DNA of 64,000 bases, from positions 139,051 to 203,050 of the forward strand of contig CASDVP010000003.1 in assembly GCA_949284445.1 (NCBI GenBank). Reading direction: 5' to 3'. Origin of the DNA: an uncultured Bacillota bacterium (GTDB taxonomy: Bacteria > Bacillota_I > Bacilli_A > RFN20 > CAG-288). The notes under the pieces were generated by a model. It saw nothing but the letters and a program-made list of their open reading frames with translations, made no database searches and had not been told where the DNA came from. This document shows, in pieces, positions 39,964 to 41,622 of the stretch. The position numbers were made by a program, and so were the translations under genes. Positions within the stretch are counted from its first letter, which is position 1. Every line of letters begins with the position of its first letter.

Positions 39964-41622
39964 TTATGGTAATTCTGTCCAAACCGTTTCTACATAATCA
40001 GTAGGATTACACTTATTTGGATCTTTACTAGAAATAACACCTCCACCAGTGATATTTCCAAACATCTCTCCCCAGCCATTAGCATAATTCAAATATTCTT
40101 GGAAATCGTTGTAGTGATTATAAGTATAAAAAACATACCTATCTTCCGGATTCACTCGTTGTTTAGTGTCATCATAATAGCTGGCATAAACGATTCTAGC
40201 AGCACCTCTTTCTATTCTCTTTCCGTCATTATATATAACACTCTCATACTTAGGATCACAATCTGTACCAGTGGTCCCGATATCGATCTCATAATATTGA
40301 ATATTTCCACCACATCCAGTGATATCCGGTAATTCTGGCTCGTAAGGATAACCATCAGTATCGCCAGAGAACTTATTATTATTCAATCTTAAATATTCAC
40401 CCCAAGGAGAACTTGTAGGGCTAGCTGATTTGTTTTTTGAGTAATTGATCGGAACTTCACCCCAAGCATATATATAAGCGGCTACTTCTTCTAATGAAGT
40501 GTATGCAGCACCATAATAAATATCAAAAGCTTTATCACCATGAGCATCTAAAACAGTATAAGTTTGATTATTATTTGAATAGTTTAAACTGGTGTTATGA
40601 ATCAATTTACCATTTTGCTGAGGCTGATATGATGACACAGTCGGCTCTTGATCAGGAACTTCAATCCAACCAGACATCAGATCACATTCGCTTCTATACA
40701 TCGCATCAGTGTAGCTAGTAGCACGAGTATAGTCATCATAGAATTGATCTTTATCGATTTCTAGATATGGATTCCCTCCTAGAACTTCGATATTCAGCAC
40801 GTTTGACATCAAACCATTTTCATCATAAAGATAGAAATTAGTTTTACCTATTTCAAGACCATTAACATATAAATCACCTAATGAAGAAAAACTAATAGAT
40901 ATGATATTCATATCATCAATATCCCATTTTAATTTTGATTTATTGCCAGAGTAATTACGAACGGTGATCCTTTCATGATTACCGACTATAAGAGATGAAG
41001 AAACAGAGATATCAAAATCATAAATTGTCAGTTCAACGATATTGGATACCGAATCATAACACTCAGCTTGGATCTGAACAGTCCCTGATTTTAAGGCAGT
41101 GATCGTTCTACCATCGATAGAGATCAAATCTTGGCCATCTAAAACTTTAAGCGTCACATCATCAATATAATCTTCAGGATCAACTGAAATGGATACTGTG
41201 GTTGTTTCACCAGTTCTTAATTCTTGATCAGCAAGTGAAATATAAACAGAATCAATCTCTGCTTCTGTCGCATTGACAAAGATATCGATTTTAGATTGAA
41301 CATTGCCGATTTTGGCGACTACAGAGGTGATTCCTTCATGAATAGCTGTGATCAAGCCATCGCTATCAACAATAGCGACATCCTCATTTAAAGTTCCATA
41401 TTGAACATCATTTTTATCTGCGTTAGTAACCACCACTTCTAGCTGCAAATTCTCACCGACATTCATCCTCGCAGTTTTACCGTTAAGGATAGTGATCGAT
41501 GGTGTGTTTTCATTAAGAGAAGAATCGCTTGCGTCATTTGAAATCTTTTCACAAGAACCCATCGCTGTGGAGCAAAGCAAGAAGCAAATAGTAGATAAAC
41601 AGATAAGTTTTTTAGTTTTCAT
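39964..41622 (-). CDS. Surface lipoprotein: Big_2 (bacterial Ig-like) domains fused to a C-terminal barnase/RNase N1/T1-family ribonuclease domain
   Basis: Signal peptide with Cys (LLCSTAMGSCEK). Big_2-like repeats (ARMNVGENLQLEVVV...VAIVDSDGLITAIHEGITSVVAKIGN). The C-terminal region aligns with barnase: YYEIDIG ~ WREADIN (catalytic Glu), RGAARIVY ~ RNSDRILY (Arg83/Arg87), YTYNHYNDF ~ YKTTDHYQTF (catalytic His), plus AWGEVP ~ ALGWVAS. Confidence 0.55.
   Translation of the reverse strand: MKTKKLICLSTICFLLCSTAMGSCEKISNDASDSSLNENTPSITILNGKTARMNVGENLQLEVVVTNADKNDVQYGTLNEDVAIVDSDGLITAIHEGITSVVAKIGNVQSKIDIFVNATEAEIDSVYISLADQELRTGETTTVSISVDPEDYIDDVTLKVLDGQDLISIDGRTITALKSGTVQIQAECYDSVSNIVELTIYDFDISVSSSLIVGNHERITVRNYSGNKSKLKWDIDDMNIISISFSSLGDLYVNGLEIGKTNFYLYDENGLMSNVLNIEVLGGNPYLEIDKDQFYDDYTRATSYTDAMYRSECDLMSGWIEVPDQEPTVSSYQPQQNGKLIHNTSLNYSNNNQTYTVLDAHGDKAFDIYYGAAYTSLEEVAAYIYAWGEVPINYSKNKSASPTSSPWGEYLRLNNNKFSGDTDGYPYEPELPDITGCGGNIQYYEIDIGTTGTDCDPKYESVIYNDGKRIERGAARIVYASYYDDTKQRVNPEDRYVFYTYNHYNDFQEYLNYANGWGEMFGNITGGGVISSKDPNKCNPTDYVETVWTELP

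Follow-up and report, generated by a model that had tools for sequence, protein, structure and literature searches.

A predicted surface lipoprotein with a barnase-fold RNase module, a candidate RNA scavenger, in an uncultured Bacillota bacterium

The stretch of DNA analysed here, called the window throughout, comprises 64,000 nucleotides from an uncultured Bacillota bacterium (GTDB lineage Bacteria; Bacillota_I; Bacilli_A; RFN20; CAG-288). It corresponds to positions 139,051 to 203,050 of the forward strand of contig CASDVP010000003.1 in GenBank assembly GCA_949284445.1. On its minus strand lies a gene for a lipoprotein in which immunoglobulin-like (Ig-like) spacers precede a ribonuclease (RNase) module with the barnase fold. 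An earlier note on this DNA had described the gene as encoding a lipoprotein-anchored barnase-family RNase, convergent on rtcB and with no barstar nearby, and had proposed either a scavenging nuclease or a contact-dependent toxin. Our analysis supports the structural call, a lipoprotein-anchored barnase-family RNase with intact catalytic residues. Of the two roles, surface RNA scavenging is the more probable.

The locus and the encoded protein

The gene, the segments of its product and the adjacent features are placed in Table 1. Three independent assemblies, including a 441-kb scaffold, yield the identical 552-residue protein. Its N-terminus, MKTKKLICLSTICFLLCSTAMGS-C, fits the PROSITE PS51257 lipoprotein pattern with the lipobox AMGS-C: a basic N-region and a hydrophobic core precede a lipobox whose Cys, at position 24, falls within the required range of 15-35. 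The same pattern is matched by 81 of 120 homologues. In alignments of homologues, a Cys at this position is at least 90% conserved. The match at Cys24 agrees with the lipoprotein anchor claimed in the earlier note.

The anchor is followed by a spacer of about three Ig-like repeats, which had been described as several Big_2 domains. One such domain is significant, and a Big-like Pfam match in the spacer has E 3e-6. A second repeat of about 80 residues weakly resembles the first (25% identity, E 0.06), and the third gives a sub-threshold Pfam match, so that the plural is only partly supported. The C-terminal 271 residues form the conserved module. The region N-terminal to it varies across the family and can consist of Big_2, OB-fold, Flg_new, Big_3 or low-complexity linkers.

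In the intergenic region upstream of the gene, sigma-70-like matches were weak and no more numerous than in shuffled sequence (promoter and terminator scan). An Rfam search of the region upstream of the RNase gene found no riboswitch.

Table 1. Positions in the window of the RNase gene, its protein segments and neighbouring features
Feature	Position	Strand	Remarks
Whole gene	39964-41622	-	552-residue lipoprotein, Ig-like spacers and barnase-fold RNase module; ATG start; stop codon 39964-39966 (list of open reading frames)
Signal peptide, residues 1-23	41554-41622	-	PROSITE PS51257 pattern match by regex
Codon of Cys24, predicted to be lipid-modified	41551-41553	-	Placed by lipobox AMGS-C
Spacer, about three Ig-like repeats, residues 40-281	40780-41505	-	Pfam and repeat comparison
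Pfam Big_2 domain, residues 50-108	41299-41475	-	E 2e-11
N-terminal subdomain of conserved module, residues 282-370 (89 residues)	40513-40779	-	
Barnase-like catalytic core, residues 371-509	40096-40512	-	
Codon of E428, guanine-loop Glu	40339-40341	-	
Codon of E445, predicted general base	40288-40290	-	
Codon of R472	40207-40209	-	
Codon of R476	40195-40197	-	
Codon of H503, predicted general acid	40114-40116	-	
Conserved C-terminal extension, residues 510-552 (43 residues)	39967-40095	-	Motif LNYxxGWGEMFGNITGGG; invariant columns
Upstream intergenic region, presumed promoter and 5' untranslated region	41623-41856	-	Shared divergently with iron-containing alcohol dehydrogenase (Fe-ADH) gene
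rtcB	38732-39952	+	PF01139, E 1e-57

The C-terminal module compared with barnase

The top Pfam match of the protein is PF00545, at 16.1 bits and E 0.017. One other member of the family scores 20.5 bits against it, and the best E-value within the family is 8.6e-5. The module is a member of the barnase superfamily but, by its score, lies outside the PF00545 family in its present curated form. An NCBIfam scan gave nothing relevant, and searches of the PDB sequences with the module and the family profile (phmmer and hmmsearch) gave no matches.

When the family was compared by hhalign with a single barnase sequence, the first helix alone was aligned (Prob 2%). The profile comparison needed an alignment of the barnase family, for which 23 canonical PF00545 proteins were used. 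It then gave Prob 95.9% and E 6.2e-9 over 93 columns, covering barnase residues 1-108. E445, R472, R476 and H503 are paired with E73, R83, R87 and H102 of barnase, respectively. This reproduces the motif pairing of the earlier note, where YYEIDIG contains E445, RGAARIVY contains R472 and R476, and NHY contains H503. In the same alignment YPYEPELP is set against barnase NREGKLP, and E428, which is at least 90% conserved, pairs with the guanine-loop residue E60. Alignments of 36 and 27 sequences, with identities down to 38%, show all four of these residues without exception. Among 72 representatives drawn more widely, this still holds for the Glu and both Arg, and the His is conserved to at least 90%.

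The core of the module has an alpha+beta fold in which an N-terminal helix is packed on an antiparallel sheet. Foldseek against the PDB returned nothing significant, with RNase Sa3 ranked third at E 3.7. Profile-profile and fold searches both recover barnase, so that the refuting test named in the earlier note did not refute the assignment, and the barnase fold stands. A different register was considered and rejected. Comparing the hidden Markov model (HMM) of the family with barnase gave two short local alignments, one of which places ARIVY in register with ADINY; this has no support from hhalign and fits the strand order of the structural model less well.

The module also departs from barnase. 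The segment around barnase residues 33-47 is replaced, and there are three insertions, including an invariant DIGTTGTDCDP loop directly after the strand that carries the catalytic Glu. The predicted local distance difference test (pLDDT) score is <50 both for this insert (module residues 165-179, within window 40195-40290) and for the GWGEMFGNITGGG motif (module residues 229-252, window 39967-40095). The insert is lost in family members at about 40% identity. As a separate observation, a tail of about 28 residues follows the module in 108 of the 120 homologues (for example P0059, P0009 and P0005) and is absent from the window protein, which ends at 39967. The tail has a hydrophobic strand-like stretch and then K/R-rich residues, often ending in CA or AA, and is not an LPXTG signal.

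Distribution and gene neighbourhoods of the family

A homologue search gave 2218 clusters at 90% identity (E ≤1e-3), compared with 464 clusters for a canonical barnase search of the same database. The 120 best matches are approximately 57-72% identical across the whole module, and the named sources among them label the proteins as 'hypothetical' or 'Ig-like domain-containing'. An exhaustive HMMER scan of 1.84 billion cluster representatives returned 517 at E ≤1e-3 and 216 at E ≤1e-30, and a scan of one genome per GTDB species found the family in 393 species. Literature searches on the family, on DUF2828 and on barnase-like lipoproteins found no description. The family is large and unannotated.

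Gene neighbourhoods were sampled at 80 loci, all in other species, and reached up to 10 kb to either side of the gene. All of these are metagenome-assembled genomes (MAGs) or uncultured isolates, and the named sources are gut, faeces, caecum and rectum. They are labelled as Clostridia, Oscillospiraceae or 'Eubacteriales', or as Bacilli and 'Mollicutes'-like. The nearest relatives of the window (66-83% identity) belong to uncultured Bacilli, 'Mollicutes', Candidatus Onthovivens and Candidatus Alloenteromonas, and a more distant carrier, at 60% identity, has a closed chromosome of 1.06 Mb. These carriers make a small genome plausible for the window organism as well. Between Bacilli-like and Clostridia MAGs the module is 57-62% identical. 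This is an unusual degree of conservation for an enzyme that is exported, and it points to horizontal transfer among gut Firmicutes or else to very strong constraint.

Neighbours within 10 kb were counted by clustering of flanking open reading frames (ORFs) and by targeted tblastn. A SurE protein (5'/3'-nucleotidase family) is encoded at 33 of the 80 loci and two DHH/DHHA1 phosphoesterases likewise at 33, an SNase-domain lipoprotein at 24, a large OB-fold/aBig_2 lipoprotein at 16 and uridine kinase at 12. The salvage genes occur in several orders and orientations (convergent, co-directional or separated by other genes), and the RNase modules of the loci that carry them share only 59-98% identity.

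In the commonest arrangement the genes for the SNase, OB-fold and barnase-like lipoproteins are consecutive on one strand, and all three products have lipoboxes. One example is L032:5736-10867, which encodes an SNase protein, an OB-fold and aBig_2 protein of 800-1200 residues, and the barnase-like RNase; about 16-24 other loci are similar. The OB-fold/aBig_2 lipoprotein is without an annotated catalytic domain. The trio may be a set for the capture and degradation of nucleic acids at the cell surface.

One homologue, P0286 (L084:6001-9117; NCBI GCA_965346595.1), is a lipoprotein of 1038 residues that fuses a Metallophos/5'-nucleotidase, an OB fold and the barnase-like module. Its gene lies in a tightly spaced, co-directional array (L084:5040-12981) with genes for uracil phosphoribosyltransferase (UPRTase, Upp), an HD phosphohydrolase, two DHH/DHHA1 proteins and SurE, and this array is probably an operon. 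More generally, the accessory domains in 72 long representatives of the family are surface repeats (Ig-like, Flg_new), OB folds, which are nucleic-acid-binding, and nucleotidase.

Two further candidates were rejected. Nucleoside ABC transporters do not flank the gene in the Bacilli clade, where the neighbours are ZIP, RDD, glycosyltransferase and generic ABC genes, and no second RNase module is present in the large upstream proteins.

Elsewhere in the window, a tmRNA gene at 44275-44672 (+) (Rfam RF00023, 112 bits) fills a seemingly empty 885-bp gap downstream of a gene for a 379-residue membrane protein. The smpB gene is at 51920-52384, an RNase R-like gene at 52387-54732, and tRNA genes are at 8018-8090 (-) and 23588-23658 (-). 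Two more lipoprotein genes, at 31434-35191 (-), lie beyond the WYL and YjbR genes and encode an 813-residue GH88-family protein and a 434-residue Big_3 protein. With these GH88-family and Big_3 lipoproteins nearby, the region is rich in surface-exposed degradative proteins.

Role of the enzyme and known systems

We suggest, with a probability of about 0.65, that the protein is an outward-facing barnase-fold RNase at the cell surface that degrades extracellular RNA for the scavenging of nucleosides and phosphate. After export via Sec, the protein would receive a lipid at Cys24 and be held by it on the outer side of the membrane, with the Ig-like repeats holding the 271-residue catalytic module away from the surface. 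Given its fold and residues, the core would most likely cut RNA by barnase chemistry, in which Glu445 is the predicted general base, His503 the predicted general acid, and Arg472 and Arg476 would stabilise the transition state. Judging from the context of the homologues, extracellular gut RNA would be broken down in this way, and nucleotidases and phosphoesterases would release nucleosides and phosphate for salvage.

The scavenging option of the earlier note is supported by the homologues found beside SNase and OB-fold lipoproteins, SurE, DHH/DHHA1 proteins, uridine kinase and UPRTase, and by the one 5'-nucleotidase fusion. This linkage and the fusion, together with the presence of rtcB at a single one of the 80 loci, favour scavenging over a toxin paired with RtcB. 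SNase and barnase-type enzymes give 3'-phosphorylated products, for which nucleotidases and nanoRNase-like enzymes are logical next steps. Among the Bacillus enzymes, binase and balifase are induced by phosphate starvation (PMC5021464), and in Mycoplasma lipoprotein nucleases and a 5'-nucleotidase serve nucleotide salvage (PMC11729948, PMC12115388).

It should be said that several observations weigh against this interpretation. The PF00545 score does not reach the gathering threshold of 24 bits, and in the hhalign alignment a conserved Lys398 is offset by one position from Lys27 of barnase. Three conserved elements (the N-terminal subdomain, the insert DIGTTGTDCDP and the C-terminal motif) could point to another activity or another substrate. 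Salvage genes are linked to the family in Clostridia-type loci; there is no such linkage in the Bacilli-like clade of the window itself, where the neighbours are heterogeneous, and the role of the window gene is therefore transferred by homology (57-62% identity). In addition, SurE and the DHH proteins look cytoplasmic, which makes their link to extracellular products indirect.

The alternative that survives best, although we hold it to be unlikely, is a surface RNase that is active but serves mainly some purpose other than nutrition. Its targets could be host or dietary regulatory RNAs, mucus or biofilm RNA or RNA-phage genomes, or it could be cytotoxic to host cells, as with binase. Fold, active site and export speak for it just as they do for scavenging, the window's own clade is without salvage-gene linkage, and repeats of the Ig-like, Flg_new and Big_3 types are characteristic of surface proteins that act in adhesion. 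Nucleotide metabolism is nevertheless indicated by the repeated linkage, and in one case fusion, to nucleotidases, nanoRNase-like DHH proteins, Udk and Upp, and there was no link to defence or virulence loci.

A more doubtful proposal concerns how such an enzyme could be made safely without barstar. The N-terminal subdomain, the insert and the C-terminal extension might keep the enzyme inactive or unfolded until it has been exported and anchored. Alternatively they might provide a second activity, for instance one that processes 2',3'-cyclic or 3'-phosphate ends. RtcB, as recruited in the window lineage, could then be a back-up for the repair of damage from leaked activity.

The adjacency to rtcB and the missing barstar were prominent in the earlier note. 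Its second option, in a wider form, is an RNase toxin, acting by contact against bacteria or damaging the cell itself, for which the adjacent RtcB repairs 2',3'-cyclic-phosphate/5'-OH breaks in place of a barstar. The chemical argument is sound, since RtcB seals the ends made by metal-independent RNases and the products of barnase-type enzymes are its substrates (PMC7824862). The close convergence of the two genes was also confirmed, with 11 nt between the rtcB stop (39952) and the stop codon of the RNase gene, and the arrangement is kept in the closest relative, locus L004 (83% identity).

L004 is, however, the only one of the 80 loci with RtcB within 10 kb, and likewise the only one where DUF2828 and the WYL regulator adjoin the RNase gene. 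In the window, rtcB overlaps an upstream DUF2828/DUF7788 gene by 7 nt and thus belongs to the transcription unit of that gene; a gene for a WYL-domain regulator is divergent from this pair. Four sampled loci of DUF2828 homologues are all without RtcB and without the RNase, and the divergent WYL regulator is kept in three of them (L085, L086 and L088). The conserved unit is accordingly WYL and DUF2828, to which RtcB was added in the window lineage. Based on these gene orders, the WYL/DUF2828/RtcB cassette (window 35995-39952) appears to be a separate unit that the RNase gene abuts, and the 11-nt convergence appears to be coincidental, a lineage-specific accident of gene order. As to the DUF2828 protein itself, it has no sequence relative in the PDB, and a scan of viral contigs with it found nothing. 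One of the sampled WYL and DUF2828 pairs is beside a cas3/cas5/cas7 cluster and another is beside a TraG-like gene.

That no barstar-sized ORF lies within 2 kb agrees with the ORF list, in which rtcB, the DUF2828 gene and the Fe-ADH gene take up the flanks. The Pfam Barstar family (PF01337) was not matched at E ≤1 by any of 10 small ORFs selected across the 64-kb window. Nor was Barstar among the 25 families listed, out of 38 matched, for 63 small ORFs flanking homologues, and tblastn with barstar gave 0 matches in 83 loci; these searches covered loci and not whole genomes. Balifase alone is reported to have its gene in an operon with that of the inhibitor, whereas neither barnase nor binase is encoded beside its inhibitor (PMC5021464), which weakens the premise that a missing nearby barstar is anomalous. 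Neither the rtcB adjacency nor the missing barstar holds up as a special feature.

What remains in favour of the toxin is thus the chemistry, the short spacer, its persistence in L004 and the lack of a barstar among the 10 small ORFs selected from the window. Against it stand the rarity of rtcB near the RNase gene, the place of rtcB in another transcription unit, and the convergence of the two genes, which are not co-transcribed. No small neighbour gene recurs across the homologue loci, and LXG, Rhs, CDI (contact-dependent inhibition) or other toxin-trafficking domains are found in none of the 72 long representatives. Polymorphic toxins vary at the C-terminus, whereas in this family it is the N-terminus that varies and the C-terminus that is conserved. 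We consider the toxin to be very improbable.

Least probable of all is a catalytically dead or repurposed barnase fold with a binding role, for RNA or some other ligand, or with another activity supplied by its extra conserved elements. The sub-threshold PF00545 score, the shifted Lys27 equivalent and the large conserved additions would suit it, but a dead enzyme would not be expected to keep the catalytic Glu, the two Arg and the His-Tyr pair invariant down to 38% identity, or the His at least 90% conserved in the 72 representatives.

If surface scavenging is the correct interpretation, the textbook secreted barnase would not be the most widespread protein of this fold in the genome and metagenome protein collection that was searched. 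That place would go to an unannotated variant, lipid-anchored and enlarged, which is present in hundreds of uncultured Clostridia of the gut and Bacilli with small genomes. Through it these organisms, whose genomes are in many cases reduced, could obtain nucleosides and phosphate from RNA of dietary, host or microbial origin. The SNase and OB-fold lipoproteins, the barnase-like RNase, nucleotidases and salvage kinases would together make up a surface 'RNA-utilisation' gene set. The family is also a natural test of whether production of a barnase-type RNase is possible in the absence of barstar. A new Pfam/InterPro family is called for, and the 'hypothetical protein' labels would be corrected.

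The closest characterised relatives are barnase, binase and balifase, extracellular guanyl-preferring RNases of Bacillus (PF00545, N1/T1/barnase superfamily). Unlike these, the window protein is predicted to be lipid-anchored and not released, and its catalytic module is placed behind Ig-like spacers. The module has in addition an obligatory N-terminal subdomain of 89 residues, three insertions and a C-terminal extension of 43 residues. RNase Sa, Sa2 and Sa3 of Streptomyces are soluble, secreted proteins of 96 residues with a barstar-like inhibitor, and this group is further from the module than barnase is.

Polymorphic toxin systems (CDI, Rhs and LXG) contain barnase-like C-terminal toxin domains together with barstar-like immunity proteins. 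There, too, the barnase fold acts outside the producing cell. In contrast to these systems, the family described here has neither an N-terminal toxin scaffold for trafficking or with repeats nor an adjacent immunity gene, and its C-terminus is conserved.

The same logic as proposed here, the supply of nucleotide precursors, is found in the surface lipoprotein nucleases of Mollicutes (MnuA and the SNase-like MAG_5040) with their lipoprotein 5'-nucleotidase (PMC11729948, PMC3585158, PMC12115388). The likeness extends to the carriers, as the window has its nearest relatives among small-genome 'Bacilli/Mollicutes' MAGs. The Mollicutes enzymes are metal-dependent DNA/RNA nucleases of unrelated folds (SNase and others), and a review of mycoplasma nucleases does not mention barnase. 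On the best-supported reading, the window RNase would therefore parallel the mycoplasma lipoprotein nucleases in function and not in fold.
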